Source: Mycobacteriales bacterium (lineage in GTDB: Bacteria; Actinomycetota; Actinomycetes; BP-191). Taken from it: DNA of 64,000 nucleotides. The stretch's first letter is position 1, and each line of letters starts with the position of its first letter. The translations under genes and the position numbers were made by a program. Where the stretch lies: positions 9-64,008 of the forward strand of contig DATLOQ010000119.1 of the NCBI GenBank assembly GCA_035536235.1, written 5' to 3'. The notes below the pieces were generated by a model, which saw only the letters and a list, made by a program, of their open reading frames with translations, had not been told where the DNA came from and made no database searches. Shown here one piece after another: positions 5,876-53,004 of this stretch.

Positions 5876-5884
5876 CGACCGAGC

Positions 5885-27283: not shown

Positions 27284-28020
27284 CCGAGCAGGGCCCGGCG
27301 AACGGCGATCGCCAGCTGGACGACCGAGAACGCGCACAGCCCCCCGACTGCGGCCAGCCCGAGGGTCGGGAGCACCGGTGCCGCGGCGGGAAAGATGCCG
27401 GTGAAGTGGATGGTCGGGGAGCACAGCGCCACCCGGGTCGGCCGCTCCCCCGGCGTCACGACGCCGATGTCGCCCGCTCCAGCGTTGCCGGCGCGTGCCC
27501 GTAGGTACTCCAGCAGGAACAACGCCAGCCCGGTCAGGACGGCCAGCTCCAGCGGCCCGCCGAGCGCGACGATCGCGGCCAGGTAGAGAACGTCGCAGAT
27601 CCGGTCGGTGAGGCTGTCGAGGACGTAACCCCACTGCGATGTGCGCCGGGTGAGCACCGCGACGCAGCCATCCAGCGCGTCAAGCAGGCCACTGCCCACC
27701 ACCAGCCAACCGGCCAGGATCGGCCACCGACCGCCGGCCTCCGCGCCGACGTAGACGGCGAAGGCCAGCCACACCCCCCAGATGGTGAGCAGGTCAGGAA
27801 GCACGCCGCGACGAGCCAGCGGGCGGGCGATCGTGTAGGCGATTGTCAGCCAGCCGTGGGTGAAGGCATTGCCACGCGGGTCGTAGCCCTCGTGCAGCGT
27901 GCTCCACCGGGTGAAGTAGCCGTCCAGGTCCGGCACCGCCTCGTCCGGCGGGCGCGCGGTGGCCAGGCTCAGCACGACCAGCAGGGCGGCGAGGCCGAGC
28001 AGCACTAGGGGCTGGGTCAC
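27208..28020 (-). CDS. CDP-alcohol phosphatidyltransferase family protein
   Basis: Membrane protein with a D-x2-DG-x2-AR-x8-G-x3-D-x3-D type region (DALDGCVAVLTRRTSQWGYVLDSLTDRICD). Its 3' end overlaps the crtD-like 3' end by 76 nt (convergent). Confidence 0.6.
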   Translation of the reverse strand: MTQPLVLLGLAALLVVLSLATARPPDEAVPDLDGYFTRWSTLHEGYDPRGNAFTHGWLTIAYTIARPLARRGVLPDLLTIWGVWLAFAVYVGAEAGGRWPILAGWLVVGSGLLDALDGCVAVLTRRTSQWGYVLDSLTDRICDVLYLAAIVALGGPLELAVLTGLALFLLEYLRARAGNAGAGDIGVVTPGERPTRVALCSPTIHFTGIFPAAAPVLPTLGLAAVGGLCAFSVVQLAIAVRRALLGQPAGPTSPATMRAESSTNGSPPPG

Positions 28021-28182
28021 CAGCGCACCCTACGGTCATCACCAGCAGCGGCGTACGGCGCGGCGGCGCCCTGCGAGAACGGTCTTGCCGCACGGCCGTT
28101 CGACGTAGGACGGTGCCCTCATGAGATCACGCGTGCATCACGTCCCCGCCGGCTTTGCGGGCCCCGATGCCCTCGGCACCTG

Positions 28183-28716
28183 GTGGGCGCACCGCCGGCA
28201 AGGCTGCCGGCCATGAACCGGCCGATGCCTCCGGTGTGCACGGCCGGCGAGCGACCGATGCTCGAGGCGATGCTCGACTGGTACCGCGCGGGGGTGCTGA
28301 GCAAGGTCGCCGGGATGAGCCAGGCCGACGCGACCTCGACGCCGCTGCCGTCGCCGACCACCGCGGCGGGGCTCGTGAAGCACCTGGCGCTGGTGGAGGA
28401 CTTCTGGTTCACGGTCGGCATCGGCAAGGCGGCCATCCCCGAGCCCTGGGCCGGCGTGGACTTCACGGTCGACCCGGACTGGGAGTTCCGCACGGCCACC
28501 GAGGCACCGCTCGCGGAGTCCGTGGCGCTCTACGTGCAGGCGTGCGAGCGGTCGCGGGCCGTCAACGCCAATCACTCGCTCGACGACATCGGCACCGACC
28601 GCCGTGGCGATTTCACGCTGCGCTGGGTGCTGGTGCACATGCTCGAGGAGACGGCCCGACATCTCGGCCACCTCGACATCCTCCGCGAGCTCGCCGACGG
28701 CACTACCGGCGAATAG
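28183..28716 (+). CDS. DinB_2/DUF664 family protein (mycothiol-dependent-enzyme-like four-helix bundle)
   Basis: Sequence pattern WYRAGVLSKVAGMS...LVKHLALVEDFWF typical of DUF664. The start could be an internal Met. Confidence 0.55.
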   Translation: MGAPPARLPAMNRPMPPVCTAGERPMLEAMLDWYRAGVLSKVAGMSQADATSTPLPSPTTAAGLVKHLALVEDFWFTVGIGKAAIPEPWAGVDFTVDPDWEFRTATEAPLAESVALYVQACERSRAVNANHSLDDIGTDRRGDFTLRWVLVHMLEETARHLGHLDILRELADGTTGE

Positions 28717-28729
28717 CGCTAGAGGATCG

Positions 28730-30745
28730 CTAGGCGGCCGAGCGGGCCAGCCGACGGCGGACTAGCAAGGCGGCCGGAAGCAGCATCGCGGCCAGGCCGA
28801 GCAGCGCGAAGTCGGCACCCGTTGCCGGCAGCGGCGCGGGGCGCGGAGCCGGACGGGGGGCCGGCCGCGGTGCCGGGCGTGGCGCAGGAGCCGAGCCGGG
28901 CGCACCGGCCGCCTCGATCTTGTTGGTGGGACCGGTCCACGTGAAGACGTCCATCCCACGGGCTACGTCGTTGGACACGAAGGAGTAGGTCCGGGTCCCG
29001 TCGGCGTTGTCGACGATCTTGAAGGGCTCGCCCGTCCAGATGTCGTTGGGCAGCAGGGTGTAGCTGGCTGTCTCGGTGAAGGAGAAGCGACCCTCTGCGT
29101 CGATCTCGTAGTCGATGACCTTGATCCCCTGGCTGTACCACGCGGCGAAGATCCGCTGCTCGTCCGGGACGTGCTCGATGACGTGGATTGTGCAGAACGT
29201 GGGGCTGACGAGCGTGCTGGGCGAGATGTACACCGCCTTCTCGCCGTCGGTGTTCAGCGCGTAGGTGAATCGGCCCTTCGCGTCCCGCTTCTTCGTGTCG
29301 AACACGTGCATGCCGCCGTTGCCGTACGGGTTGTCGAGCGACGGTGCGCAGGTCGCGCCGGGCGGGATGATGCCGCCGCCGCGCTCGTCGGTGACGAAGA
29401 GGTAGCGCCCGTCGGGCGATGGGTCCGACTCGTGGCCGATCGCCACGCCCTCAGAGGACCGCGTGGTCAGGTTGGTGTTGCAGTTGTAGGTGCCGTCGCG
29501 GCGGCAGTCACGGCCGACGTTGTTGAAGTGTCCGGCGTACTTCCAGCCGGTCGCTGCGGGCCGCTTGAGGTCGTTGTAAGCGTTGACCGCTCGCACTGCC
29601 CTCGACGTCTGGTCCGCCGGGTTGGCGAGTGGGGTCTCGAAGACGCAGTCGGTGACCTTCGCGCCGCTCACGGCACCGACCGCGGGCGCTGCGTCGCCGA
29701 GCTTGCAGGGCAGGGGCGTGCCCTTGATGTCCCCGCGCGGGTCGTTCGGTGCAGGGATCGCTGGACCCTGCGCGGAAGTCAGGCCGGACACGTCGAGGAC
29801 AATGGTCGCGGTCGGTGCAGCGCAGTAGATCTTGCCGGGCCGGGCCGTGATGTCGTGACAGCCGGACGGCTGCTTCCTCGAGCCGTCGGCGCCCTCCTGC
29901 ACTGCCCACTCGTACTCGAAGGGGATGCGGAAGACCTTCGGTGCACACTGCGCGCGCTGGGTCTCCAAAGCCTTGCCGGCGTTGTTCAGGCAGGTGCGGA
30001 TGTCCAGCACGTCGATCCACGCCATGCCGACACCGAGCGGGTTCACATCGTCGCCCGCAGCGGGGTCGACGCCGAACTCGGAGTTGCTGTTGTAGATGAT
30101 CCAGGGTCGGGTGGCGTCGGCCGTCACCGTGTGCGAGGTGCCGTTGTGCCGCGTCAGGTGCACCTCACGGGGCTCGAAGCCCTCCGTGCCGAGCCCACTG
30201 ATGTCCACCAGCTCCAAGCCGCCATTGGTCTTGTCGTGGCAGCGGCCGACGGCGTCGACGGCGTCGAGGAGCAGCGTGCCCTGCGGCTTCTTACCAGGCT
30301 TGAAGAACTCGCCGTGCGGCGCCTTCGGCACGATCACCTGGTCGTGCTGGATGCCTGTGGTGGCGCTGACGTTGGTGATGTCACCGCAGTACGACGAGCC
30401 GTGGTCTGCCACGAACTCCGGGTTGACCGTGCCGTCCGGGTCAGTGAGCTTGATGAGGCGCTGGCCCACGATCGATGGCTCGGCCTGGCCGAGCTGGCCG
30501 CCGGCAGCGTAGATCTGGCCGTTGCGGTGGAAGAACTTCACGTCCGTGCCGGTAGTGCCGCCGAAATTCTTGATGTGCTCCCACGTGCCTTCGCCGGCGC
30601 TGCGTGACTCCGCCCCTCCGAGGTCCACAATCGGCGCCAGCGGGCGGTTGGGGTCAGTGTGGTCCGCTGCTGCCGGTGAGGCGGCCAAGGCCGCGAGCAC
30701 GGCGATGGCTGCGGCGGCATGGGTACGGCGGAGGGCGAAGCGCAT
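28730..30745 (-). CDS. secreted surface protein with C-terminal LPATG sortase sorting signal and (PAPR)n linker; N-terminal domain unassigned (beta-propeller-like)
   Basis: Signal peptide MRFALRRTHAAAAIAVLAALAASPAAA from ATG 30745 (GGAGG ribosome-binding site). C-terminus PAPRPAPRPAPRPAPRPAPLPATGADFALLGLAAMLLPAALLVRRRLARS is the classical LPXTG-hydrophobic-basic architecture. Confidence 0.7.
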   Translation of the reverse strand: MRFALRRTHAAAAIAVLAALAASPAAADHTDPNRPLAPIVDLGGAESRSAGEGTWEHIKNFGGTTGTDVKFFHRNGQIYAAGGQLGQAEPSIVGQRLIKLTDPDGTVNPEFVADHGSSYCGDITNVSATTGIQHDQVIVPKAPHGEFFKPGKKPQGTLLLDAVDAVGRCHDKTNGGLELVDISGLGTEGFEPREVHLTRHNGTSHTVTADATRPWIIYNSNSEFGVDPAAGDDVNPLGVGMAWIDVLDIRTCLNNAGKALETQRAQCAPKVFRIPFEYEWAVQEGADGSRKQPSGCHDITARPGKIYCAAPTATIVLDVSGLTSAQGPAIPAPNDPRGDIKGTPLPCKLGDAAPAVGAVSGAKVTDCVFETPLANPADQTSRAVRAVNAYNDLKRPAATGWKYAGHFNNVGRDCRRDGTYNCNTNLTTRSSEGVAIGHESDPSPDGRYLFVTDERGGGIIPPGATCAPSLDNPYGNGGMHVFDTKKRDAKGRFTYALNTDGEKAVYISPSTLVSPTFCTIHVIEHVPDEQRIFAAWYSQGIKVIDYEIDAEGRFSFTETASYTLLPNDIWTGEPFKIVDNADGTRTYSFVSNDVARGMDVFTWTGPTNKIEAAGAPGSAPAPRPAPRPAPRPAPRPAPLPATGADFALLGLAAMLLPAALLVRRRLARSAA

Positions 30746-30833
30746 CGTGGTGCCTCCAGGCGGGGTCATCACAGCATTGGGGTACGACCTGGCGATTTCG
30801 CCACGTCTCGGGACATTCCTGCTCAGCCAGCCG

Positions 30834-31718
30834 TCACGGATGGGCAACGACCCCCAGCGCGGCGTAGATCTCCCTCGTGGCCGTCGACCGGTTGAGCGTG
30901 TAGAAGTGCAGCCCGGGCGCCCCCCCGTCGAGCAGGTCGCGGCACATCCGGGTGGCCACCTCGACGCCGACCCGCCGTACCGCGATCGGGTCGTCGGCCA
31001 CCCCTCGCAGCCGCTCCGCCAGCTCCGGCGGGAACGCCGCCCCCGACATCAGGGCCATCCGCTCGATCTGGGCGACGTTGGTGACCGGCATGATCCCCGG
31101 GATGATCGGCACATCGCAGCCGCGGGCGCGGACCCGGTCGACGAGGGCGAAGTAGTCCGCCGGGTCGAAGAAGAACTGGGTGATGGCGAAGTCGGCGCCC
31201 GCCGCGCACTTCTGGGCCAGATACTTCGCGTCGGTGTCGCGGTCGGCCGACTCACGGTGCGCCTCGGGGAACGCCGCGACCCCGACGCAGAAGTCACCGA
31301 GCTCACGCAGCAGCCGGACCAGGTCCTCGGCGTATGTCAGCCCCTCAGGATGCGGCTCCCACTCCTGGTCCACTCCCCCGGGCGGGTCGCCCCGGAGAGC
31401 CAGCACATTGCGGATGCCGGCGTCGGCGATCGCCCCGATCACGTTGCGCAGCTCGTAGCGTGAGGCGCCGACACAGGTCAGGTGCGCCACCGCGGTCAGC
31501 GTCGTTTCGGTGGCGATGCGCTCGACGATGCGCAGGGTCCGATCGCGGGTCGAGCCGCCCGCGCCGTAGGTCACCGACACGAAGGTGGGGGCCAGCGGCT
31601 CGAGCTGGCGGATCGCCTGCCAGAGCTCCACCTCGCCAGCGTCGGTCTTGGGCGGGAAGAACTCGAACGAGAAGGACCGCCCCCCGGCGGCGAGCAGGTC
31701 CCGCACTGTGATGCTCAC
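30834..31718 (-). CDS. metF: 5,10-methylenetetrahydrofolate reductase
   Basis: MTHFR fold similarity ([11 protein letters not shown]...TYGAGGSTR...). GTG 31718 gives a ~294-aa product; the ORF-track extension to 31982 is Arg/Ser-rich junk. Divergent from idsA as in M. tuberculosis Rv2172c/Rv2173. Confidence 0.8.
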
Positions 31719-31806
31719 TCCGCAGAGGTTAGAGGACGGGAGACCTCTCGACCGGGCCGACACGGGCGCGCGGCGCCGTCGGCGGCACTGCTGGCAGAAT
31801 CGCGAC

Positions 31807-32895
31807 GTGGCCGCCAGCCGGAGATCCGTGCCCAGCCCGCTCGACGTCGCCGACCTCCGCGAGCGCGTGCACAAGGCGCTGAGTGCCTTCCTCGCTGAGC
31901 AGGTCGGCGTGCTCGACCGGATCGCGGAGGAGCTCGGCCCCATCGGCACGGCGGTGTCGGACTTCCTGCTCGACGGGGGCAAGCGGCTGAGACCGGCGTT
32001 CTGCTACTGGGGTTGGCGCGGAGCCGGCGGGCCGGACAGCGACGAGATCGTGGCAGCGGCGGCGTCCCTGGAGCTGCTGCAGGCCTGTGCGCTGATACAC
32101 GACGACGTGATGGACGGCTCCGACACCCGGCGCGGGCGGCCTGCGGTGCACCGGGGGTTCGCCGCACTTCACCGCGGCGAGGGGTGGCTGGGCGACCCGG
32201 AGACCTTCGGCACGTCCGCGGCCATCCTGCTCGGCGACCTGTGCCTGATCTGGGCCGACCAGCTGCTGAACACCTGCGGGCTGCCCGACGTGATGCTGCG
32301 CCGTGGCGCGCCGACGTACGACGAGATGCGGGTCGAGCTGATGGCCGGGCAGTACCTCGACCTGCTCGAGCAGGCACTCGGCGGCCGGGACATCGATCGG
32401 GCGCTGCGGGTGGCGCGCTACAAGAGCGCCAAGTACACGATCGAGCGCCCGCTGCACCTGGGCGGCGTGCTGGCGGGAGCGCCGACCGAGCTGCTGGCGA
32501 CCTACACCGGCTACGGGCTGCCGCTGGGCGAGGCGTTCCAGCTCCGCGACGACGTGCTGGGCGTCTTCGGCGACCCGTCGGAGACCGGCAAGCCGGCGGG
32601 CGACGACCTGCGCGAGGGCAAGCGCACCGCGCTGGTCGCAATCGCGCTGGACCGCGCCACTCCTGACCAGGCTGCCGTCGTGCGCCGGCACCTCGGCGAC
32701 CCCCACCTCGACGAGAGGGGGGTGGCCCTGCTGCGCGACGTGATCGACGGCACGGGCGCGCTGGCGGAGGTGGAGGCGCTGATCGCCCGCCGCACGGACG
32801 AGGCGCACAGTGCCCTGGGCGCTGGGGTGCTGGAGCCGGCGGCGCGAGAGGTGCTCGGCAACCTCGTCAGCGCAGCGACGTCCCGCCGCGTCTAG
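31807..32895 (+). CDS. idsA: geranylgeranyl diphosphate synthase (polyprenyl synthetase; CrtE/IdsA2-like)
   Basis: FARM ([15 protein letters not shown]) and SARM (FQLRDDVLG) motifs. Start chosen at GTG 31807 to avoid overlapping the divergent metF start. Confidence 0.8.
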
Positions 32896-35624
32896 ACGTG
32901 CCGGGCTCGGCGGCGGAGCGCCGCCCCGGCCAGGACGACGAGGAGCCCGAGGTGCGGCGCGACCGCGCCAGTCGCCGGCATTGGCCGCGGCGTGCGCACC
33001 GGGGGCACGGGAGCCGCGCGGACCGGCGCGGCGAGCGCTATCACGTGCACCCAACCGCCTCGGTCCTCGTACGGCATCGTCAAGCACGGCCCGATGACGC
33101 CGTCGGTGAGCGAGCAGACCTCGGACCGGGGGTGAGGGCGCCGAGCGTCGGTGAGATCGGGCCCAGAAATCTCCCGCACTGATGCGATCGCCGAGCGCAG
33201 CGCCGCCGCCACCACGGCCTGCGGAGCCCGGCCGCCGGTGTAGTCCCGCGAGGGGACCAGGCCGGAGAAGCCCGGCCGGAGGATTCGCGTCGCGAGGTTG
33301 TCCAGCGGTGGCGCGTCATAGACGTGGCTGCCCACGCCGGTCTGCCGATCGAGGATGGCATCGGATCCGTCATCCGGCAGCAGACCGGCGAAGAGCTCCC
33401 GGCGTACCGCGAGGACGAAGGCGTCGTAGAGCGTTGGCGCCGGGCCGTCGGTGGCCGGCTCACCCATCGTGTCAGCACCGGGTCCGTAGTGGCTGCCGTC
33501 CCAGGCCAGGAGCAGGTCGATCGCGGTGCGCTCGTCGGACGTCAGGTCGTCGCGACGGGCGAGCTCGGCCAGCAGGGGTCGATAGAGCGTCAGCCTGACG
33601 TCACGGCTGCCCGCCAGTCGGTCCACGGCCATCAACGCCTTGAGGTCCAAGTCCTTGCGGCCGCGCAGCAGGTCGTGCAGGAGCGTCACTCTCTGGACGG
33701 GGCCGGCAGGGCGAGAGAACGGTGCTCGCCCTTCGCCGTCCAACCAGCCGCGCGCGGGCTTGTTGTTCCAGTTGACGAGATAGCCCTCGGGCGGGTCGAC
33801 GGAGTGCGGCATCTCCTCGAAGGTCAGCAGCCCGTCCGGATCGTGCTCGCCAGTGCCAGGAGCGGGCAGCCGCATATCCACCGAGCGCTTGCGGCGCAGC
33901 TCCAGCCCCGGGTGCCAGTAGGCGATGCGCCCGTCTGCATCGGCATAGAGCACGTTCTCGTTCCAGGTGACCGCGCGGACACCGGCCTCGAACTCGGCGA
34001 AGGTGTCGGCGCTGTTCCACGCCAACGTGCCCTTGATGGTCTCGAGCTCTCGTCCCCACATGGCGTACTGCACGGACCGGGACTTAGTGCCGTCCGCGGT
34101 TGTCGCGACGATCGGCCCATGGACGGTACGGCAGGCGCGGACGTCCTGGCTGAGCAGGGCAGGGCCGACCGGCACGCCCTCGGGCGCGGCGCGGTAGCGC
34201 ACTGTCTCGGTCCGGCAGTCCGCGTCCTTCCACTTGCCGTCGTGCAGGTACTGCGGTGGATCGCCGGCGCTGGCACCCGGTCTGGTCGTCTCGATGTAGG
34301 AGTCGATGGACTTGCTATAGCCCGACGTCAGCGCCCACGCGACCCGCTTGCCGTACCCGATGCCGATCGTCGGCAGCCCTGGCACGGCCGCGCCGCGAGC
34401 GTCGTACCCGCCGCCGTGCACCTCGAGCTCCCAGAGCATGCTCGGGTAGCTGTAGCCGAGCTGCGGACCGCTGAGCAGCAGAGCCTTGCCGTCCCTAGTG
34501 TTCTTCGGCGCGACCGCTGCTGCGATGGACCCGCCGCGCAGGTTCGTCAGGTACTCGTGTACGGCGGTGACAGCGCGCGCCACGGCCGCCTGCGGGACGC
34601 CGAGCGGGTTGGCGGCCGGCGCGGCCACGGGGGCCCGTGGTGGCAGCGTCGGCTCCGGGCTGCCGCCAGTGCCGGGACCCGTGGCGAGCTCCAGCGGGAT
34701 GGTTGCGGCGAAGTCCGCCATGGACGTGAAGGTGCGAGCGCGATCAGCTGCGCTGCCCGGGATGTTGCTGAAGGAGCGACCCTGCACGGTGGTCACCGCC
34801 TTGGGGTCCTCTTGCCAGACCAGGTCCTCGAAGACTCCGCGGCCGGCGGTCTTGCCGAGCTTCGACTCCAGGGTCCGCAGCGCCGCGACGTTCTCCATCT
34901 CGTTGCCGCCCTCGGCGGCGACGAAGCGGGTGATCAGCACGCCTGCGGCGAGGACATCCCGTCGCTCCCACCGCCTCGGCGTAGTCGTCAGAAGGACGTA
35001 CTCCGCCGGCAGCAGTCGGGGATTCGCAGCCACCTCGTCGAGACGCGCGTTGACCCCGTCGACGTACCCGTCGACGGCGTCCTTGCCGGCCTGCGGCAGC
35101 GCGACGAAGAACTGCTCGTACTCCTCCGCGGAGTAGGTCAGGACGCGGGTCTTGATGTCGGCCGGGACGGACCCGCTGCCGGCCAGCTCGGCCAGCGTGC
35201 CGAGCCCCGTGCGCCGCAGGCCGTCCATGAAGAACAGCCGGTCCACCGCGGCAGAGTAGCCCGCCCCGAACCACACGTCTCGCCCGGTGTCGGCGTACAC
35301 CGCAGGCACGCCGAAGCCATCACGGTAGATGCGCACTCCCGGCTTGGGCTCCACCGGTTCGCCTTGAGCGTGGAATTTGCCGGGCTTGTATCCGAAGCCC
35401 CAGTAGAGCTCGCGTTGGTCGTCGATGTGCTCGCCGAACTCCGACGGCTTCCCTGATGCTTCTCCACGCAGCTGGCCCTCGACGGAGAAGAAGCCGCTGT
35501 TGCCGGGCGGCAGCACTGTGAACGCGGTGAGCTCCTGCCTGGGTGGGCTCTCCTGCGCCAGGGCCGGCGCGACCGGGAGGAAGCCAAGCAGGGCAACGAG
35601 GAGCGCTGCGGGGGCGATGCGCAT
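32892..35624 (-). CDS. penicillin amidase / acylase family protein (Ntn-hydrolase S45), secreted, with C-terminal MPATG sorting-signal-like tail
   Basis: Signal peptide, ~880-aa penicillin-acylase-family length and motifs. C-terminus [44 protein letters not shown]. Confidence 0.75.
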   Translation of the reverse strand: MRIAPAALLVALLGFLPVAPALAQESPPRQELTAFTVLPPGNSGFFSVEGQLRGEASGKPSEFGEHIDDQRELYWGFGYKPGKFHAQGEPVEPKPGVRIYRDGFGVPAVYADTGRDVWFGAGYSAAVDRLFFMDGLRRTGLGTLAELAGSGSVPADIKTRVLTYSAEEYEQFFVALPQAGKDAVDGYVDGVNARLDEVAANPRLLPAEYVLLTTTPRRWERRDVLAAGVLITRFVAAEGGNEMENVAALRTLESKLGKTAGRGVFEDLVWQEDPKAVTTVQGRSFSNIPGSAADRARTFTSMADFAATIPLELATGPGTGGSPEPTLPPRAPVAAPAANPLGVPQAAVARAVTAVHEYLTNLRGGSIAAAVAPKNTRDGKALLLSGPQLGYSYPSMLWELEVHGGGYDARGAAVPGLPTIGIGYGKRVAWALTSGYSKSIDSYIETTRPGASAGDPPQYLHDGKWKDADCRTETVRYRAAPEGVPVGPALLSQDVRACRTVHGPIVATTADGTKSRSVQYAMWGRELETIKGTLAWNSADTFAEFEAGVRAVTWNENVLYADADGRIAYWHPGLELRRKRSVDMRLPAPGTGEHDPDGLLTFEEMPHSVDPPEGYLVNWNNKPARGWLDGEGRAPFSRPAGPVQRVTLLHDLLRGRKDLDLKALMAVDRLAGSRDVRLTLYRPLLAELARRDDLTSDERTAIDLLLAWDGSHYGPGADTMGEPATDGPAPTLYDAFVLAVRRELFAGLLPDDGSDAILDRQTGVGSHVYDAPPLDNLATRILRPGFSGLVPSRDYTGGRAPQAVVAAALRSAIASVREISGPDLTDARRPHPRSEVCSLTDGVIGPCLTMPYEDRGGWVHVIALAAPVRAAPVPPVRTPRPMPATGAVAPHLGLLVVLAGAALRRRARHV

Positions 35625-35647
35625 CCTCCGGTTATACCGTCCTGGAC

Positions 35648-37138
35648 ATGCGCACCGTCAGTGGTCCCAGCGATCGGGTCGTCATCGTCGGCGCCGGGCT
35701 GGCCGGGCTGTCCGCGGCGCTGCGCCTCGCCGGAGCTGGTCGCGAGGTCACTGTGCTGGAGCGCGAGTCCGTCCCCGGCGGTCGAGCAGGGCGACTCTCC
35801 GACAGCGGCTTCGAGTTCGACACCGGACCGACCGTGCTGACTATGCCGGACCTGATCCGCGACGCATTCGCGTGCGTCGGGGAGGAGATGGACGACTGGC
35901 TGACCCTGCGGCCGCTGTCCCCGCTCTACCGCGCCTACTACCCGGACGGCTCCACCCTGGACGTGCACAGCGACACCGACGCGATGGCCGAGGAGGTCGC
36001 GCGCGTCTGTGGTCCCGCCGAGGCGGCGGGCTACCGGCGCTACGTCGACTTCGTGTCGGAGCTCTACCGGCTGGAGATGGCCGACTTCATCGACCGCAAC
36101 ATCGACTCGCCCTTCTCGCTGCTGCGGCCGTCGCTGGCCCGGCTGGCGGCGATCGGCGGCTTCCGGCGGCTGGCACCCAAGGTGGGTGAGTACCTCAAGG
36201 ACCCGCGGACGCAGCGGGTGCTCTCCTTCCAGTCGATGTACGCCGGGCTGTCGCCGTACGACGCGCTCGCGATCTACGCGGTCATCGCCTACATGGACTC
36301 CGTCGCCGGCGTCTACTTCCCCGAGGGCGGCATGCACGCGGTGCCGGTCGCGCTCGCCGGCGCGGCGGTCAAGCACGGCGTCGACATCCGCTACTCCACG
36401 ACGGTGACGCAGGTCGAGGTCGTCAACGGTCGGGCCGTCGGCGTGCTCACGGCTGCCGGCGAGCGAATCCCGGCCGATGTGGTGGTGCTCAACCCGGACC
36501 TCCCGGTGGCCTATCGCGAGCTGCTGCCGCCGACCGCGGTGCCGGCGCGGGTGAAGTCGCTCACCTACTCGCCGTCGTGCTTCCTGCTGCTGGCCGGGTC
36601 GACGGCGTCGTACTCCCAGATCGCGCACCACAACATCCACTTCGGCAAGTCGTGGCGCGGCGTCTTCGACGAGCTCATCGACCAGCAGTCGCTGATGAGC
36701 GACCCCTCGGTGCTGGTGACCGCGCCCACGCACACCGACCCGTCGCTGGCACCGGAGGGCCGTCACATCTACTACGTGCTCTTTCCGACGCCCAACCTCG
36801 ACGCTGCTCTCGACTGGTCGGTCATCGGCCCGCGCTACCGCAATGAAGTCATCGGGCACCTGGAGCGCCTCGGCTACGTCGGATTCGGCGACGCGATCGA
36901 GGTCGAGCACGTGACGACGCCGGCCGACTGGAGGGCCCGCGGGATGGAGCGAGGCGCGCCGTTCGCGGCGGCGCACACCTTCTTCCAGACGGGTCCGTTT
37001 CGGCCCGCCAACCTCGCGCCCAAGGTGGACGGCGTGGTCTTCTGCGGCTCGGGCACCCAGCCGGGCGTCGGCGTACCGATGGTGCTCATCAGCGGCCGCC
37101 TCGCCGCTGAGCGCATCCTCGGCCCCAGCACGTCCTAA
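35648..37138 (+). CDS. crtI: phytoene desaturase
   Basis: VVIVGAGLAGLSAALRLA dinucleotide fold and full-length CrtI similarity including the C-terminal FCGSGTQPGVGVPMV motif. Confidence 0.85.
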   Translation: MRTVSGPSDRVVIVGAGLAGLSAALRLAGAGREVTVLERESVPGGRAGRLSDSGFEFDTGPTVLTMPDLIRDAFACVGEEMDDWLTLRPLSPLYRAYYPDGSTLDVHSDTDAMAEEVARVCGPAEAAGYRRYVDFVSELYRLEMADFIDRNIDSPFSLLRPSLARLAAIGGFRRLAPKVGEYLKDPRTQRVLSFQSMYAGLSPYDALAIYAVIAYMDSVAGVYFPEGGMHAVPVALAGAAVKHGVDIRYSTTVTQVEVVNGRAVGVLTAAGERIPADVVVLNPDLPVAYRELLPPTAVPARVKSLTYSPSCFLLLAGSTASYSQIAHHNIHFGKSWRGVFDELIDQQSLMSDPSVLVTAPTHTDPSLAPEGRHIYYVLFPTPNLDAALDWSVIGPRYRNEVIGHLERLGYVGFGDAIEVEHVTTPADWRARGMERGAPFAAAHTFFQTGPFRPANLAPKVDGVVFCGSGTQPGVGVPMVLISGRLAAERILGPSTS

Positions 37139-37192
37139 ACCCTCCTCGCCTCCCGGTCCAGGCGCCGTGGCCCGCGACCGAATTCCCCATCT

Positions 37193-37276
37193 CCGCACAC
37201 AAAGTGATCGCCATGCCGCCGGACTGAGCACGAGTCTGCAGCGAGCCGTGTGGATAGAGGACCACTTTGTGTGCGG
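37193..37276. repeat. inverted-repeat element copy 1: CCGCACACAAAGTG (37193-37206) ... CACTTTGTGTGCGG (37263-37276), 14-bp perfect arms with a 56-bp spacer
   Basis: Read directly. It lies between the crtI stop and the stop of the AbiEi/DUF559 gene. Confidence 0.65.
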
Positions 37277-37280
37277 TCAG

Positions 37281-38183
37281 TCAGGGCCGGAGCATCTCCG
37301 CCAGGGTCGCAAGCACGTAGTCGGGCTCGTGGACGACGTGCTGCCAGCAGAAGCGGAGCAGCTGCAGCCCGAGGATCTCGAGCTCGTTGGCGCGCCACTC
37401 GTCAACTGCAAGCCGCTCCAGGCCGTGGAACAGGTCACCCTCGGTCTCCACAACGAGCCGGGGTGGGTACCAGAAGTCGACCCGACCGAGGCGGCGTCCG
37501 TTGGCGCGCCGAAGGAGTCGCTGAGTCTGGCCCGGCGGCATACCGGCCAAGACGACCAGGACGCGGAAGAGCGACTCCAACACCGATCCAGCCCGGGGGT
37601 TGACGAGTCCCAGCACGGTCGATACCCGCGACGCATCTCGTCCCCACAGCGCACGGCGCTCACCGATGACCGCCAGCATCCGCAACAGCCCCAATCGCAT
37701 GAGCGAGTCGATGGCCGCGACCGCGGTGCTCTGCGGCTCGGCACGAGCGAGGTCGACAGCCAGCCGGGCAGGTGCGGTCACTTTGAGCACGATCACGTCG
37801 TCGCCAACCCGCAGGCGCAGCGGTCCGACGTCCGCCGGGCCGAGATCGGATCGATGCACCTCGTACGGCGAGCTCACTCGCGACCGGTTGCGCTCTACAG
37901 TGAGGTGAGTAGCGCCGTCCCAGCCGAGTATTGGCACGCCTTGCAGCACGGCCGCGGCGGCATGGCTGACCGCAGCGCGCCGCCCAGCCGCCTCCTCGGC
38001 CACCTCGTGCACCCAGTCCGGGGAGGAGGGGATGAGCCAGGTCTTCGCGCGTACTAGCAGTACGTCGCCCCTACGCCGACGCTGGGCCAATTCGGCCGCC
38101 TCGACCCCGTGCCCGCGGGCGAACGGCGTGGAGACCAGCCGACCCGTCGCACCAGCGGCTGCCGCCAGGCTCTCGAATGACAT
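37281..38183 (-). CDS. AbiEi_4 N-terminal domain / DUF559 (Vsr-like PD-(D/E)XK endonuclease) protein
   Basis: The C-terminal VDFWYPPRLVVETEGDLFHG...DEWRANELEILGLQLLRF is the DUF559 signature; the N-terminus is AbiEi-like. ATG 38183 is preferred, because the GTG 38294 extension would translate the left arm of the flanking repeat. Confidence 0.6.
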   Translation of the reverse strand: MSFESLAAAAGATGRLVSTPFARGHGVEAAELAQRRRRGDVLLVRAKTWLIPSSPDWVHEVAEEAAGRRAAVSHAAAAVLQGVPILGWDGATHLTVERNRSRVSSPYEVHRSDLGPADVGPLRLRVGDDVIVLKVTAPARLAVDLARAEPQSTAVAAIDSLMRLGLLRMLAVIGERRALWGRDASRVSTVLGLVNPRAGSVLESLFRVLVVLAGMPPGQTQRLLRRANGRRLGRVDFWYPPRLVVETEGDLFHGLERLAVDEWRANELEILGLQLLRFCWQHVVHEPDYVLATLAEMLRP

Positions 38184-38267
38184 CCACCCAGCGTGCGCAC
38201 TCGCACCGTCGTACCGGGGTCGTGACGTGAATCTGTGAATAAGCCGGATCGGCGGCCGCACCCGATC

Positions 38268-38349
38268 CCGCACACAAAGGGGGCCGTCGTCCACAGGCCG
38301 AGCGGCGTCGCGTGCTCGCGGCGACGAGGGCGCGATCGCTTTGTGTGCG
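38268..38349. repeat. inverted-repeat element copy 2: CCGCACACAAAG (38268-38279) ... CTTTGTGTGCG (38339-38349), 59-bp spacer containing an internal GC hairpin
   Basis: Read directly. It lies in the divergent spacer between the AbiEi/DUF559 start and the crtB start. Confidence 0.65.
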
Positions 38350-38399
38350 AGCAGCTCTGATCTGGGGCCTCGCGAACCAACAGTGGGAGACTCAGGCGC

Positions 38400-39338
38400 A
38401 TGGGGTTGGTGCAGGAAGCGCTGTCACGGGGTGAGCTGCGCCGGGTCGCCGACCCGACCCTGCGGGCGTCGTACCTCGCCTGCAAGGACCTCAACGCTCG
38501 CCATGGCCGCACCTACTTCCTCGCGACGCTGCTGCTGCCGGCGTGGAAGCGCCCGTACGTGCACGCCCTCTACGGCTTTGCGCGGTACGCCGACGAGATC
38601 GTCGACGACCTCGGCTCGACCGCCAGCGACGCCGAGAAGGCGGCCCACCTCACCACCTGGGGCGAGCAGTTCCTCGCCGACGTACGCCGGGGCGAGAGCA
38701 CGGACCCGGTCTGCCGCGCGGTCGTCGACACCGTGCGCCGGTGGGACATCCCCATCGCGCACTTCGAGGCGTTCCTGCAGTCGATGCAGATGGACCTGAC
38801 CGTCACCGACTACAAGACCTACGAAGACCTGATGGTCTACGTCTACGGGTCCGCCGCAGTGATCGGGCTGCAGATGGTGCCGATCCTCGAGCCGCTGGAC
38901 GACTCGGCGTCTGCCTACGCGGCGGACCTCGGCATCGCCTTCCAGCTGGCCAACTTCATCCGCGACGTCGGCGAGGACCTGCAGCGCGGCCGCATCTACC
39001 TCCCGTTGGAGGACCTGCAAGCGTTCGGCGTCGACCGCGAGCACCTCGCGCGCGGTGTCGTAGACGGCCCGATACGACGGCTGCTGGCCTTCGAGATATC
39101 CCGCACCCGCGAGATCTTCCGGGCCGCCCGCCCCGGCGTCCGCCTGCTGCACTCGACCAGCCGCGACTGCATCGAGACGGCGCTCACCCTCTACGGCGGC
39201 ATCCTGGACGAGGTGGAGGCCGCCGACTACCAGGTGCTCGACCGGCGGGTCTCCGTCGGCCTGCCCCGGCGGGCGGCCGTCGCCGGCCGGGGAATCGTCC
39301 GGGCCCGGCGGGCGCGCCGCCGTGGCCCCTGGGCGTAG
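38400..39338 (+). CDS. crtB: phytoene synthase
   Basis: Squalene/phytoene synthase Asp-rich motifs (YARYADEIVDD; FIRDVGEDLQRGRIYLP). Confidence 0.9.
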   Translation: MGLVQEALSRGELRRVADPTLRASYLACKDLNARHGRTYFLATLLLPAWKRPYVHALYGFARYADEIVDDLGSTASDAEKAAHLTTWGEQFLADVRRGESTDPVCRAVVDTVRRWDIPIAHFEAFLQSMQMDLTVTDYKTYEDLMVYVYGSAAVIGLQMVPILEPLDDSASAYAADLGIAFQLANFIRDVGEDLQRGRIYLPLEDLQAFGVDREHLARGVVDGPIRRLLAFEISRTREIFRAARPGVRLLHSTSRDCIETALTLYGGILDEVEAADYQVLDRRVSVGLPRRAAVAGRGIVRARRARRRGPWA

Positions 39339-39416
39339 CCTCTCAGGAGGCAGGCCTCGGCCGCCGTACGGCGAAGTTCAGCGAAGCTGCACTACTTCCG
39401 GCCCTCAGGAGCTCCC

Positions 39417-41048
39417 ATGCGCACGCGCCCCAGTCGGCTCTCTCGGACCCTGGCGCTCGGCGGCCTTGCGGCGGTCGCGATCGGCGGGGCGACCCTGTCC
39501 TCGCCCGCCACGGCCGCCACCCCCTGCACGCCTCCGCCGCGAGCGATGACCTTCGACGAGCCGGGCTATGTCGACACGACTCGAGCCGGCGGTGAGCCCA
39601 TCATCTTCACCCACCCCGACGGCACGCTGCTCTACGGCTCGCACGCCGGCACGACGCACTTCTTCGCCCCCGAATCCGCGGACGAGCAGATCGCCGCTTT
39701 CGCCGGCAACTACCGCGGCCAGACCTACTACTACCACTCCAAGGACAACGGGAAGAGCTGGACCTACGTCGACCGCACCTTCCCACCCGACTCGACGCTG
39801 GCCTCCGGCTTCTCCGACCCGGAGTTCGCCTACGACAAGGCGGGCAACGTCTACGTCTCGGAGATCAACCTGGCCAACATCTCGATGTCGAAGTCGACCG
39901 ACTCGGGCCAGTCCTACAAGGAGCAGAACTTCTTCGCCCAGACGGTCACCGACCGGCAGTGGACCGAGGGGGACGAAGAGGACGTCGTCTACATCATCGC
40001 CAACTCCTTCGGCGGCGGTACCTTCCCCAGCCGACCCGTCGGCAACAGCGGGCACTACCTCTACAAGAGCGTCGACGGCGGCAAGACCTTCACGCCAGGC
40101 ATCCCCGACGATGCCGGCCTCGGCGACATCCGGGTGGACAAGAGTGACGGCACGCTCTACGAGGCGCAGTACGCCGGCGCTGGTGGCGATCTGATCATGC
40201 GAGCCTTCCGCGGTGCGCGCGCGGACGACATGACCCCCGAGGACAACGTCGTCGCCGAGGGTGTCAGCATGCTGGCGCACTGGCCGACCTTCGACCTCGA
40301 CCCCGCTGGCAACCTCTACATCACCTGGGACGAGTCTGGCCAGGGCGATCGCCCGGCCGGCATCTACTACGCCTACTCCACCGACCGCGGCAAGAAGTGG
40401 TCCGCGCCGGTCCGCCTCGACAAGGACGAGAAGACTGACATCTGGCCCTGGCTCGCCGTCGGTGACGAGGGCCGGGTCGGAGTCGCCTGGTTCCAGGCCG
40501 ACGTGCAGCTGCCGGAGGAGGACGCCCAGACTCCCGGTGACCATGGCTGGACGGTGCAGGCCGCGCAGAGCCTCAACGGGCTCGGCTGCCTCTCCTCCCC
40601 GGTCCCCGCCTTCCGCAACGCCACGGCCGTCGCCGACCCCGTCCACGCCGGGACGATCTGCCAGGGCGGCACCGTGTGCCAGGCGCAGGCCATCGACCGC
40701 CGTCTCGGCGACTACTTCAGCGTCGAGATCGCCGGGGACGGTAAGTTCGTGCTCGCGTACTCCGACACTCGGATGGGCGGCCCGGTGGCGCTGCCCGGCT
40801 TCACCCGGCAGACCGACGGGCCGTCGTTCTTCGGCAAGCCGGAGCCGCGGTTCGGCAGCAAGGGTGCGGTCCGGCCGGCACCCGCGCGACCGCAGCCACA
40901 GCCCCAGCCGGCGCCCCGACCCGCTCCCAAGCCGGCGCCGCTGCCGGCCACCGGTGGGTCGCTGGCCGGCATAGGTCTGGCGCTGCTCGCCGGCGCGGCC
41001 GGTGTCGCCGCCGTACGCCGGCACCGGCAGCGTGCTGTCACCGGGTGA
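39417..41048 (+). CDS. secreted BNR/Asp-box (sialidase-like glycoside hydrolase) protein with C-terminal LPATG sorting signal
   Basis: Signal peptide; four SxDxGxxW/F Asp-boxes (SKDNGKSW, STDSGQSY, SVDGGKTF, STDRGKKW). C-terminus PQPQPQPAPRPAPKPAPLPATGGSLAGIGLALLAGAAGVAAVRRHRQR. Confidence 0.75.
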   Translation: MRTRPSRLSRTLALGGLAAVAIGGATLSSPATAATPCTPPPRAMTFDEPGYVDTTRAGGEPIIFTHPDGTLLYGSHAGTTHFFAPESADEQIAAFAGNYRGQTYYYHSKDNGKSWTYVDRTFPPDSTLASGFSDPEFAYDKAGNVYVSEINLANISMSKSTDSGQSYKEQNFFAQTVTDRQWTEGDEEDVVYIIANSFGGGTFPSRPVGNSGHYLYKSVDGGKTFTPGIPDDAGLGDIRVDKSDGTLYEAQYAGAGGDLIMRAFRGARADDMTPEDNVVAEGVSMLAHWPTFDLDPAGNLYITWDESGQGDRPAGIYYAYSTDRGKKWSAPVRLDKDEKTDIWPWLAVGDEGRVGVAWFQADVQLPEEDAQTPGDHGWTVQAAQSLNGLGCLSSPVPAFRNATAVADPVHAGTICQGGTVCQAQAIDRRLGDYFSVEIAGDGKFVLAYSDTRMGGPVALPGFTRQTDGPSFFGKPEPRFGSKGAVRPAPARPQPQPQPAPRPAPKPAPLPATGGSLAGIGLALLAGAAGVAAVRRHRQRAVTG

Positions 41049-41060: not shown

Positions 41061-41870
41061 GTGCCACGCAGCGCTAGCACCTGGGTCCGTCGTGCGCTCG
41101 GCGTCCTGGTCACGGTCTCCCTCGGCCTGGGCACGTTCGTCCTCTACGGCGCTCGAGTGGCCCACCCGGTCAGCGCCGCGGAGGCGCTCCGCGGCTTCAC
41201 CGAGCGGCCGTCGTACGCCGGACGTCCCGGTCTCGACGCGGCCTTAGACGGAGTCCGACCGGCGGCCGGCGTCTACCGGTACGCGACCACCGGGTCGGCG
41301 CGGGTGGACCTGCTGGGCATCGAGCGGCACTACCCCTCGACAACGGCACGGGTGGTCCGGCTCGGTCCCGGCTGCCAGTGGGAGGAACAGGTGCCGCTCT
41401 TCGACGAGCATGTCGAGACCTACTCCGCCTGTGCGGCAGCTGGCGACCAGATCGAGACCGGCTACGCCACCCGGCTGACTTACTTCTTCGTGCCCGATAT
41501 CAGTGACGCGGGATGCGCCCCGGGCGGGAGCCGGACAGGACACCGCCTGGCGCCAGGCAGCACGCAGAGGTTTCGCTGCCTCGACCGAGCCCGTCAGGTC
41601 CGCACGGACGGCAGCATCACGTTCCTTGGCGCGTCGACCGTCCACGTGGACGGGCGGGAGCAGCCATGTCGGCAGGTGCGGATGCTCACGGTGCTCCGTG
41701 GTCGCACCAGCGGCGCCGCGCTGCGCGAGCTGTGCACCGAGGCGAGCACGGGCCTGGTGCTGCGGGAGACCCGCACCGTCGGGCTCACCGTGGAGAGCGC
41801 GTTCGTCGGAGTCGTCCGCTACGTCGAGTCCGCCGAGTTCACGCTGAAGTCGATGACGCCACGGCGCTAG
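41061..41870 (+). CDS. hypothetical N-terminally membrane-anchored Cys-containing extracytoplasmic protein
   Basis: Starts 13 nt after the LPATG sialidase-like gene; one TM then ~230-aa soluble domain with six Cys; no domain recognised. Confidence 0.45.
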   Translation: MPRSASTWVRRALGVLVTVSLGLGTFVLYGARVAHPVSAAEALRGFTERPSYAGRPGLDAALDGVRPAAGVYRYATTGSARVDLLGIERHYPSTTARVVRLGPGCQWEEQVPLFDEHVETYSACAAAGDQIETGYATRLTYFFVPDISDAGCAPGGSRTGHRLAPGSTQRFRCLDRARQVRTDGSITFLGASTVHVDGREQPCRQVRMLTVLRGRTSGAALRELCTEASTGLVLRETRTVGLTVESAFVGVVRYVESAEFTLKSMTPRR

Positions 41871-42976
41871 CCAACCGGCACCGGGCGCCCACGCCAGCCG
41901 ACCGGCCGGCCGCGGTGACGCAGCCACCTGGCCTGCGCGTGGTGCACAGCCAGCAGCAGATCGGTGAGGGGGGAGAGTGCGGCTGGCCAGACCGGCTGCC
42001 GGGCGCGCGCTCGGGCCGCGCCGTCGGTCACCACCTGCGCCGCGACCGCGACAGCGGCGAGCCGGCGGGTCGACGTCGAGCGGGACTGCAGGAGCGCGAC
42101 CGGCGCGAACCCCAGGGCTGCCGCGGCCGCGCCCGCTGGCCACGGGCCGGACCGGACCGCGGAAGTGTTCTTCAGCAGCCCCACCCAGCAAGCGCGGGCG
42201 TCGTCATACATCTGCGCGGAGTAGCCGTCGAGAGTTGTCGCGAGCACCACCTGCCCACCGTGTGCTTTCACCAGCCGGGCGAGCGCGACGTCCTCGACGA
42301 CCTGGTCAGCGACGGCGAGGTGCCCGCCGACGGCGTTGTAGACGCTACGGCGGATCAGCAGGCAGGGGCCCGCGGCGAAAGCTGCCGACGACGTCGGGTC
42401 GGCGATGAGATCCGGGTCGTGCCGCCGCGCGACGGCCAGGCCGACGGCCGGCAGCAGCCACCCGCTGAGGGGGTCCACGGTGACCAGCCGACCGACGGCG
42501 CTGACCAGGTCGGCGTCGCGCTCGTCGGCGGCGCGCAGCAGTCGGTTCAGCAGGTCCGGCGCCACCCGTACATCAGCATCGACGAACCACAGCCACTCCC
42601 CCCGCGCCGTCGCAGCACCCGCCGCGCAGGCCACCGGCTTGCCGAGCTGTCCCACCTGCGGGCCGGGGGAAGGCAGGACCCGGACTGAGGGGCCGGCTCG
42701 GCTCGCCGCCAGCGCGGTGCCGTCGCGCGAGGCGTCGTCCACCACCACGACCTCGGTGAGGTCGGGTCCGGAGAGGCACAGAGCCTCCAGGCACTCGGCG
42801 ATGTGGCGAGCCTCGTCTCGGGCCGGCACGACGGCGCTCACCGTGGTGATCCGGGGGCGGTCGGGGGGCGCCACCAGTCGATGCCGGGCTGCGCCGAACC
42901 GAGCCAGCCGACGAACGCGGTACGCCGTGAACCCGATCGAGGCGGCGGTCACCACGGCTCGCGGGTCGGCGAGCAT
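41867..42976 (-). CDS. family-2 glycosyltransferase (carotenoid glycosyltransferase paralog)
   Basis: Parallels the 24642 GT2 (VVPARDEARHIAECLEAL; QVVEDVALARLVKAHGGQV...QMYDD). Start chosen at ATG 42976. Confidence 0.65.
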   Translation of the reverse strand: MLADPRAVVTAASIGFTAYRVRRLARFGAARHRLVAPPDRPRITTVSAVVPARDEARHIAECLEALCLSGPDLTEVVVVDDASRDGTALAASRAGPSVRVLPSPGPQVGQLGKPVACAAGAATARGEWLWFVDADVRVAPDLLNRLLRAADERDADLVSAVGRLVTVDPLSGWLLPAVGLAVARRHDPDLIADPTSSAAFAAGPCLLIRRSVYNAVGGHLAVADQVVEDVALARLVKAHGGQVVLATTLDGYSAQMYDDARACWVGLLKNTSAVRSGPWPAGAAAAALGFAPVALLQSRSTSTRRLAAVAVAAQVVTDGAARARARQPVWPAALSPLTDLLLAVHHAQARWLRHRGRPVGWRGRPVPVG

Positions 42977-43296
42977 CACCCCCGCGGGCGTCCGGCACGT
43001 GCCGCTTCGCGGCGGCCCAGCCACACCCACCACAGCAGCGTCTGCACGACCAGCGCGAAGCCGAAGAGCAGGTCCTCGACGGGTGCGTAGACGATGCGCA
43101 CTCCGAGGATGGCGTCATCGTCGTAGGTCACGATGTCGCGGCCGGTGAGGACTCCGTTGGTGATCAGCTGGAAGAAGATGACGATGGCGTAGGACACCCA
43201 GAAGATGCGCCGGCGGAGCAGACCGGTGCGCAGCACCAAGACCTCGAGCAGCAGCGTCAGGACGACGCCGAGCGAAGCGGCGGCGGTGTAGGTCAC
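42976..43296 (-). CDS. crtYd: lycopene cyclase domain protein (heterodimeric cyclase subunit CrtYd-like)
   Basis: ~105-aa three-TM protein of the lycopene-cyclase-domain family; GTGA overlap with the upstream subunit gene. Confidence 0.7.
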   Translation of the reverse strand: MTYTAAASLGVVLTLLLEVLVLRTGLLRRRIFWVSYAIVIFFQLITNGVLTGRDIVTYDDDAILGVRIVYAPVEDLLFGFALVVQTLLWWVWLGRREAARAGRPRG

Positions 43297-45507: not shown

Positions 45508-45879
45508 TCAGAACCCGAGAGCCTGAGCGCGGCGCTTGACCTCGGTGCCGCGGTTCTCGACCAGCGCCTGCACCGGGGAGCCGGGCAGCGAGTCATCTTC
45601 CGTGTAGAGCCACCGCAGCATCTCCAGCTCGGTGTAGCGCGCGTCGCGCAGCAGGTTGAGGACGCTGGGCAGGCTCTTGAGCACCTGCCCGCCGCCGACG
45701 AAGTCGGCAGGGATCGACAGCGGCTCGCCCTCGCCACGACGTATCGCGATCAGCGATCCGTCGCGCACGAGCTGACGTACCCGGGTGACCTCGAGGTTCA
45801 TGGCTTCGGCGACGTCCGGCAGGGTCACCCAGCTGCCGACCAGCTCCCACAGCTCATCGACTGTCGGCTCGCCTGTCAC
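45508..45879 (-). CDS. Rv2175c-family DNA-binding protein
   Basis: Recalled similarity to M. tuberculosis Rv2175c (VLKSLPSVLNLL, EMLRWLYTED, KRRAQALGF). Confidence 0.7.
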   Translation of the reverse strand: MTGEPTVDELWELVGSWVTLPDVAEAMNLEVTRVRQLVRDGSLIAIRRGEGEPLSIPADFVGGGQVLKSLPSVLNLLRDARYTELEMLRWLYTEDDSLPGSPVQALVENRGTEVKRRAQALGF

Positions 45880-45907
45880 GTCGGTCCTCCTCGTTGCTGC
45901 TCAGCTG

Positions 45908-52979: not shown

Positions 52980-53004
52980 CGGATCCAGACGTAGACTGGC
53001 CTCC

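Follow-up and report, generated by a model that had tools for sequence, protein, structure and literature searches.

The 64,000-nucleotide stretch analyzed here, referred to below as the window (positions 9 to 64,008 of contig DATLOQ010000119.1, assembly GCA_035536235.1, Mycobacteriales bacterium), encodes three secreted proteins whose C-terminal tails, judged by their layout and conservation, are genuine sortase-type sorting signals. These are a beta-propeller protein (28730-30745, minus strand) and a secreted Asp-box (BNR) beta-propeller of 543 aa (39417-41048, plus strand), both carrying LPATG, and a penicillin-acylase-family hydrolase of 910 aa (32892-35624, minus strand), which carries MPATG, with Met in place of Leu at the first position of the pentapeptide (P4). 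The ordinary housekeeping actinobacterial surface-display route probably accounts for all three proteins. Taken at face value the finding matters little: it adds three sortase substrates from an uncultured actinobacterium to those already on record, and its only mildly novel threads are relaxed P4 in these lineages and an orphan propeller family rich in His, Asp and Cys.

Translation of the three open reading frames (ORFs) gives a tripartite C-terminus each time: a Pro-rich linker, the pentapeptide and 17-21 hydrophobic residues with an Arg-rich end. The pentapeptides lie at 28817-28831 (minus strand) in the propeller, 32967-32981 (minus strand) in the acylase and 40941-40955 (plus strand) in the BNR protein. 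The propeller C-terminus reads ...APRPAPRPAPRPAPRPAP-LPATG-ADFALLGLAAMLLPAALLV-RRRLARSAA, its hydrophobic segment ADFALLGLAAMLLPAALLV, basic tail and stop codon occupying 28730-28816 (minus strand). That of the BNR protein reads ...QPQPQPAPRPAPKPAP-LPATG-GSLAGIGLALLAGAAGVAAV-RRHRQRAVTG, with the hydrophobic segment, RRHRQR tail and stop codon at 40956-41048 (plus strand). In the acylase, translation and scan place the hydrophobic segment AVAPHLGLLVVLAGAAL, the basic tail RRRARHV and the stop codon at 32892-32966 (minus strand). At the other end of each protein a Sec-type signal peptide, with a basic N-region, a hydrophobic core and an AxA-type site, can be read directly from the translation, the cleavage sites falling after MRFALRRTHAAAAIAVLAALAASPAAA and before DH, after MRIAPAALLVALLGFLPVAPALA and before QE, and after MRTRPSRLSRTLALGGLAAVAIGGATLSSPATA and before A. 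All three proteins combine the features of the LPXTG type, namely an N-terminal signal, a pentapeptide 30-40 residues from the C-terminus, and a hydrophobic segment with a basic tail. MPATG is not a recognised LPXTG variant, but it occupies the same alignment position as the LPATG of the acylase ortholog. The initial annotation had described three such tails, two LPATG and one MPATG, and had given the Met-bearing tail the same architecture as the others; the translations bear out both statements, and ortholog conservation adds to the first.

A six-frame scan of the window for x[PA]x[TSA]G followed by a hydrophobic stretch and a basic tail at an ORF end picked out these three signals, each in a long coding-like ORF, while three further matches end ORFs of only 53-101 codons; the G+C content of the window is 70-74% throughout. 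Orthologs at 78-92% identity preserve the tails even though their linker and hydrophobic residues have changed, a persistence that goes beyond chance. The propeller and BNR orthologs of two sister metagenome-assembled genomes (MAGs), L002 and L004, both retain LPATG with altered linker and hydrophobic residues (the L002 propeller is 92% identical), and the propeller LPATG recurs in the orthologs P0121-P0123 and P0126.

The course of events after synthesis is inferred, as regards cleavage, linkage to the wall, the sortase responsible and whether the Met variant is active. The Sec pathway would export all three proteins, and the C-terminal hydrophobic segment with its Arg-rich stop-transfer tail would hold each in the membrane. 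A membrane-bound sortase encoded elsewhere in the genome would cut the pentapeptide between Thr and Gly, and the Thr carboxyl would be joined to a peptidoglycan precursor, so that the enzyme or propeller would stand out from the cell surface on a Pro-rich stalk. In the propeller, the Pro/Ala-rich (APRP)n linker at 28835-28912 (minus strand) is predicted to be disordered, with a predicted local distance difference test (pLDDT) below 50 for residues 614-644, and is likely the stalk spanning the wall. MPATG would probably still be processed, perhaps less efficiently; if uncleaved, its tail would still tether the acylase to the outer face of the membrane.

Signals of this kind are frequent among the relatives of the three proteins. 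Using x[PA]xTG followed by a hydrophobic stretch and a basic tail, they were tallied in the best 120 homologs of the acylase, the best 120 of the propeller and 150 BNR cluster representatives at 50% identity, and were found in 76/120 (LPATG 44, LAATG 13, LATTG 7, others), 54/120 and 18/150, respectively. The initial annotation had called cell-wall anchoring of such enzymes unusual; the acylase and propeller counts overturn this, and a whole clade of penicillin-acylase-family enzymes appears to bear wall-anchoring signals. In the propeller set (P0121-P0240) a further 54/120 homologs end in a plain hydrophobic and basic tail with RRR and no pentapeptide (e.g., L028, L031, L047 and L050). From these tails, surface tethering appears to be the family norm and the sortase signal one version of it, and the distribution suggests that plain membrane tethering and sortase anchoring have replaced one another repeatedly. 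Nearly all homologs of the three proteins belong to Actinomycetota MAGs from soil and sediment (Mycobacteriales, Frankiales, Frankiaceae, Acidimicrobiales, Solirubrobacteraceae and Nocardioidaceae).

The residues found at P4 are informative. Leu occupies it in 73 of the 76 acylase signals, the remainder being one Met (the window acylase), one Val and one Thr. Over all 148 signals the counts are L 126, I 8, T 7, M 4, V 1, S 1 and G 1, and the residues F, P, Q, R and H, which are one-step neighbours of Leu codons, occur in 0/148. Such a pattern implies selection for a small or aliphatic residue; with I, T, M and V present and P, Q, R, H and F never seen, P4 is constrained, but not to Leu alone. 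Across diverged propeller clades, IPTTG or IATTG (8 proteins) and TPATG (3 proteins) stand at the homologous position, with the following 'TGAD' conserved. A partial ORF adjoining crtI on contig L075 (3-788, plus strand) ends in TPSTG, a transmembrane (TM) segment and RRLR, and the same contig carries an LPATG acylase, so that Leu and Thr variants coexist in one organism.

The MPATG of the acylase is a derived, conservative Leu-to-Met change at P4. Its positional ortholog (P0002, 71% identity, on L075) carries LPATG, hence the Met is derived, and the Met codon, ATG at 32979-32981, differs by one base from the Leu codons CTG or TTG. The MPATG tail is absent from acylase orthologs, while other MPxTG substrates do exist elsewhere: Met stands at P4 in three BNR homologs from other assemblies, as MPATG (P0247, P0269) and MPVTG (P0262), and the nearest compared relative of each bears LPxTG. 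By this comparison Leu-to-Met at P4 would have arisen in at least four independent events, none persisting in a clade. Met at P4 is therefore best regarded as a plausible working substrate residue, and we consider it reasonably probable, with less assurance than for the display route as a whole, that MPATG has retained its function.

Several observations weigh against this display route or against a working MPATG, and they are taken here together with the alternatives on which they bear. The enzyme itself is missing from the window. Genes were called by codon-position G+C, and among the approximately 50 called across its 64 kb the Pfam scan found no PF04203 Sortase domain; a T[LIVM]xTC-type regular expression run over the window matched only two frames that are not called genes, and tblastn of an actinobacterial sortase against the window gave no match. 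The initial annotation was thus correct in reporting no sortase here, but the significance that it implied falls away: actinobacterial genomes contain several sortases of classes E and F, normally located away from the genes of their substrates (PMC13251363, PMC5148588), so absence from 64 kb is expected. By tblastn, likewise, no sortase was found within 10 kb of any of 73 propeller loci. The class E sortases of Streptomyces favour LAXTG over LPXTG (PMC5148588); given LPATG, the responsible enzyme may be of class F, or else a class-E-like one able to take LPxTG.

One relative does carry a sortase close by. On L076, the contig of a 59%-identical acylase (P0004), a 217-aa sortase (LTLTTC; P0391) lies 4.2 kb from the acylase gene. 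It scores 59.9 bits against the generic model TIGR01076, passing the cut-off of 39.35, and among the class models it fits class E best, with 128 bits where the cut-off is 160; its more than 5000 homologs include a 'class E sortase [Mycobacteriales bacterium]'. Used as a tblastn query against the window and 76 loci (1.1 Mb), it matched only itself, and there is no systematic linkage to the propeller family. The L076 sortase belongs to an operon (2169-6599) with two secreted proteins, one of 269 aa and one of 249 aa that has a C-terminal TM segment, and two cupredoxins ending in LPKTGG and a TM segment, one of them fused to a NosD/beta-helix-like domain. Going by its gene content, this operon looks like a dedicated sortase/copper-protein display module.

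The lineage might alternatively be free of sortases, as Mycobacterium proper is, in which case all three tails would be mere C-terminal membrane anchors. The empty 64 kb, the fact that the label 'Mycobacteriales' includes sortase-free mycobacteria, and the homologs with plain TM segments and basic tails would all suit this idea. Yet orthologs preserve the pentapeptide letter for letter as the residues around it change, class E sortases occur in other MAGs of the same label, the relative's acylase on L076 lies near a sortase operon, and a genome lacking the enzyme could hardly be expected to keep three complete signals within 64 kb. Two sortases labelled 'Mycobacteriales bacterium' (HEU0133054 and HEX8001114) both come from assemblies other than that of HVE64053.1, the database entry of the window acylase. 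We regard a sortase-free lineage as very improbable.

Family models give a further point on the negative side. Against TIGR01167 (LPXTG_anchor, cut-off 15.9 bits) the propeller tail scores 14.5 and the BNR tail 15.5, both just short of the cut-off, and the acylase tail has no match to this model, only sub-threshold matches to generic C-terminal-anchor models. The near miss of the two LPATG tails says little against their function. Sub-cut-off scores for two tails and a missed MPATG tail explain why public annotation flags none of the three. The GlyGly-CTERM, MYXO-CTERM and IPTL-CTERM sorting systems were considered and rejected, as their matches were sub-threshold only and were driven by the hydrophobic and basic tail.

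The Met variant itself attracts the strongest competing explanation, in which the two LPATG proteins are wall-anchored and MPATG is no sortase substrate, the acylase being a type-I-like membrane-tethered ectoenzyme with an uncleaved helix, or a gene in the course of being lost. Beyond the missing TIGR01167 match and the predominance of Leu, both in the acylase signals and in the syntenic ortholog, the plain tails so common in the propeller family indicate that display without sortase processing is also a viable state. No MPxTG clade is conserved over evolutionary distance; because each Met is a singleton, an isolated tip beside Leu relatives, the variant could be slightly deleterious or non-functional. 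The acylase has, moreover, been lost from a close relative. In the sister MAG ant_bin.80 (L002; JBKJUS01), blastn shows window positions 32896-35523 (acylase codons ~35-910) replaced by 20 bp (7855-7874), and the first ~100 nt of the gene, its signal-peptide codons, remain 20 bp from the crtE stop. A clean 2.6-kb deletion between crtE and crtI has thus removed the acylase there, which makes it dispensable in this lineage and fits relaxed selection. On the other side, Met is the most conservative replacement of Leu and has recurred repeatedly, as counted above, while P, Q, R, H and F never have; entire clades stably retain residues at P4 that are more drastic (I, T); and the 910-aa ORF, Ser366 included, is intact, as is the remainder of the signal. 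We hold a non-substrate MPATG to be unlikely.

The Met codon could also be a consensus error of the MAG or a minor population allele, the real organism having LPATG. Only a single base separates ATG from CTG or TTG, the sequence is metagenome-assembled and represented by a single database entry, and all close homologs have Leu. But the ORF is intact, the flanks are collinear with L002 and there is no sign of poor assembly, and with MPxTG present in three unrelated assemblies no error is needed. Such an error seems improbable.

Returning to sortase anchoring with a tolerated Met, a bolder version can be proposed, in which the effective motif of these uncultured Frankiales-like and Mycobacteriales actinobacteria would be [L/I/M/T/V]-[P/A]-x-T-G, the housekeeping sortase (class-E-like or F) would be relaxed or shifted at P4, and the orphan propeller would be an undescribed extracellular metallo-enzyme. 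The fixation of IPTTG and TPATG in clades, the repeated Met, and LPATG and TPSTG on one contig lead to the relaxed-specificity part of this proposal, which as a whole we offer tentatively and think somewhat less likely to be true than false. No paper on MPXTG was found in a full-text literature search, searches for MPETG, MPATG and like strings returned only Marchantia gene names among the matches listed, and a ligase review contained nothing on Met at P4. S. aureus SrtA may accept Met only poorly at this position. If true, a relaxed or shifted P4 specificity would be undescribed for actinobacterial sortases, and sortases tolerating non-Leu residues at P4 would serve protein ligation. In practical terms, substrate predictors that require Leu, as well as TIGR01167, miss a measurable share of actinobacterial substrates: in about 15% of the 148 signals, P4 is I, T, M, V, S or G.

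The initial annotation had also called the three anchored proteins hydrolases. This holds for the acylase, which on domain evidence is the only supported hydrolase among them, and finds no support for the propeller, which has no sequence relative in Pfam, NCBIfam or the PDB, or for the BNR protein, a generic Asp-box propeller whose family profile matches GH74 better than sialidases. The acylase is 100% identical to HVE64053.1 (P0001), deposited as 'MAG TPA: penicillin acylase family protein [Mycobacteriales bacterium]', and belongs to PF01804 (E 1.6e-113; 381.5 bits against a threshold of 21.3; residues 97-823). Its nearest solved structures are penicillin G acylases (3e-68), to which the alpha and beta chains both align. 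In the phmmer alignment residue 9 of the penicillin G acylase beta chain pairs with acylase residue 374; by extrapolation residue 1 of the chain is Ser366 (GG/SIAAAV; codon at 34527-34529, minus strand), which is predicted to become the N-terminal nucleophile of that chain upon autoproteolysis. The nucleophilic Ser of an N-terminal nucleophile (Ntn) hydrolase thus appears to be present. The fit to PvdQ-type N-acyl homoserine lactone acylases is poor, the PDB matches being far weaker (1.7e-13 to 1e-11) and NCBIfam NF051460 giving 62.9 bits against a cut-off of 950.

The propeller protein has a 7-bladed beta-propeller fold and no sequence relative in Pfam, NCBIfam or the PDB, even when searched with a 66-sequence profile, and its 479 homologs are every one annotated 'hypothetical'. 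The LVIVD repeat (PF08309) matches 15 of the 66 family members, all below threshold (best E 0.0048), and does not match the window propeller; no family member is significant. Alignment of the family reveals invariant residues, including eight His, several His-Asp pairs (QHD, RCHD, CHD), DERGGG and ten Cys; these suggest that the family, which is extracellular, uncharacterised and more than 470 members strong, has a metal site and disulfides. An invariant ADH directly follows the signal-peptide cleavage site, and ADHGS is also invariant. The label of hydrolase is without any support for this protein. As an anchored protein, it represents a widespread surface family with conserved His, Asp and Cys and no known function. 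The sole homolog found in a named cultured strain is that of Kribbella catacumbae DSM 19601 (L063, 9965-11712), which has an apparent frame shift near its 3' end and may be a pseudogene or reflect a sequencing error.

The BNR protein contains Asp-box repeats by PF02012 (27.9 bits against a cut-off of 27), and four can be read directly: SKDNGKSW, STDSGQSY, SVDGGKTF and STDRGKKW. The sialidase domain PF13088, of glycoside hydrolase family 33 (GH33), scores 22.1 bits, under its cut-off of 31.4. In Foldseek searches with an AlphaFold2 model (pLDDT 84.4), the best superpositions were 7-bladed PLL/PHL lectin propellers (TMt 0.69), and sialidases superposed at TM 0.3-0.45 with ~13% identity. When a family profile was run against the PDB, GH74 xyloglucanases scored 1e-20, better than GH33 sialidases, which reached 1e-14 and weaker. 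Sialidase was rejected as a specific call on these three grounds, and the protein is best described, from sequence and model, as a generic Asp-box propeller whose catalytic role is putative at most. D53, R180 and D427-R428-R429 are conserved in its family. Starting 13 nt after its gene, a 269-aa protein with an N-terminal membrane anchor is encoded at 41061-41870 (plus strand); it has no Pfam or NCBIfam family, and by tblastn its counterpart in L002 is 71% identical and lies directly downstream of the BNR ortholog. It may be co-transcribed with the BNR gene and may be a partner of the propeller. A secreted Asp-box paralog (48882-50342, minus strand; 24% identity to the BNR protein) serves as a comparator: it stops at the end of the propeller, in ...VARPRRVP, without linker, motif or hydrophobic segment, just as the initial annotation had noted.

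The three genes are interleaved with carotenoid genes, namely crtE/idsA (31585-32895), crtI (35543-37138) and crtB (38400-39338). Elsewhere in the window two adjacent small lycopene-cyclase-domain ORFs (PF18916; 42976-43446 and 43293-43643, minus strand) adjoin a GT2 glycosyltransferase (41867-43033, minus strand), an arrangement that fits a heterodimeric cyclase and a glycosylated carotenoid pathway. It could be supposed that the surface proteins are functionally coupled to these genes, for example by processing or exporting pigment-related compounds. The acylase does lie between crtE and crtI both here and in L075, where the order crtI-acylase-crtE-MTHFR is that of the window, and the propeller, MTHFR, crtE and BNR genes are neighbours in three MAGs. 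L002, at 92-95% amino-acid identity, is collinear in the order propeller-MTHFR-crtE-crtI-DUF559-crtB-BNR-downstream membrane protein. But L002 has no acylase while its crtE and crtI are intact; L004 (78%) reads propeller-MTHFR-crtE-BNR, with acylase, crtI and crtB all absent between crtE and BNR; and an 80% propeller ortholog (L001) and the 59% acylase (L076) stand in unrelated contexts. The propeller, acylase and BNR genes are moreover on the strands opposite to the crt genes, and with this and their independent gain and loss no functional coupling is seen; we consider it the least credible of the alternatives. The interleaving that the initial annotation pointed out is, on this comparison of gene orders, real here and partly conserved among close relatives, and labile, being lost or rearranged in L002, L004 and L001.

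The wider neighbourhood includes the MTHFR and geranylgeranyl diphosphate synthase (idsA-like) genes (30834-32895), an Rv2175c-like regulator (45508-45900) and a PASTA Ser/Thr kinase (52840-54876), which we take to resemble the Rv2172c-Rv2176 neighbourhood of M. tuberculosis. The surface-protein and crt genes may have been inserted into a conserved core region. A DUF559-type ORF of 337 aa (37281-38294, minus strand) with a lower third-position G+C (0.78) lies between crtI and crtB, and L002 has at the same site (4969-6251) a 337-aa DUF559-like ORF too diverged for blastn alignment; it is possibly a selfish, and in any case apparently a fast-evolving, gene inside the crt cluster. A DinB/mycothiol-S-transferase gene (28009-28716, plus strand; PF04978, E 2e-39) stands between the CDP-alcohol phosphatidyltransferase and propeller genes, and L002 lacks an equivalent of its segment (28036-28729), the flanks there lying only ~48 bp apart. 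Other genes in the window include further desaturase-like oxidases, glycosyltransferases, thiE/thiG/thiH-like genes, haem genes and DAHP synthases.

Set against known systems, the three tails share the signal peptide-stalk-pentapeptide-hydrophobic-basic architecture, without difference, with the LPXTG signals of housekeeping sortases (S. aureus SrtA; S. coelicolor SrtE1/E2; A. missouriensis SrtE), whose substrates are scattered away from the sortase genes, as here (PMC13251363, PMC5148588). Compared with the characterised class E enzymes, the window has LPATG where LAXTG is preferred, one of its substrates has Met at P4, and its LPATG tails fall just under the TIGR01167 cut-off. Streptococcal pilins carry IPQTG, VPDTG or YPRTG sorting signals. 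In such P4 variants the first residue alone changes and the remainder of the signal, P-x-T-G core included, stays intact, as in MPATG. SPXTG, PPXTG and NPXTG are listed as recognised sorting motifs (PMC13251363). Each of the streptococcal and other known variants has become fixed in its substrates and is paired with a dedicated sortase of class B or C, whereas the Met here is sporadic and non-conserved in a family that otherwise uses Leu.

The propeller resembles the LVIVD-repeat surface proteins (PF08309) in being a surface-exposed bacterial propeller; unlike them, its family has no solved relative and possesses invariant His/Asp/Cys motifs of its own. LPXTG-anchored sialidases such as pneumococcal NanA are textbook cases. 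NanA of S. pneumoniae and the surface sialidase of Cutibacterium acnes (PDB 7lbu), which are among the fold or profile matches of the BNR protein, likewise display an Asp-box propeller on the wall via a sorting signal, and the likeness is limited to a generic propeller with Asp-boxes (TM 0.3-0.5, ~13% identity). The acylase shares the PF01804 Ntn fold, the alpha-spacer-beta precursor and the Ser at the start of the beta chain with the penicillin G acylases (PDB 7reo, 6nvy, 1gk9) and PvdQ. The characterised members of that group are soluble periplasmic or secreted proteins; the clade of the window acylase, in contrast, adds a stalk and a sorting signal.

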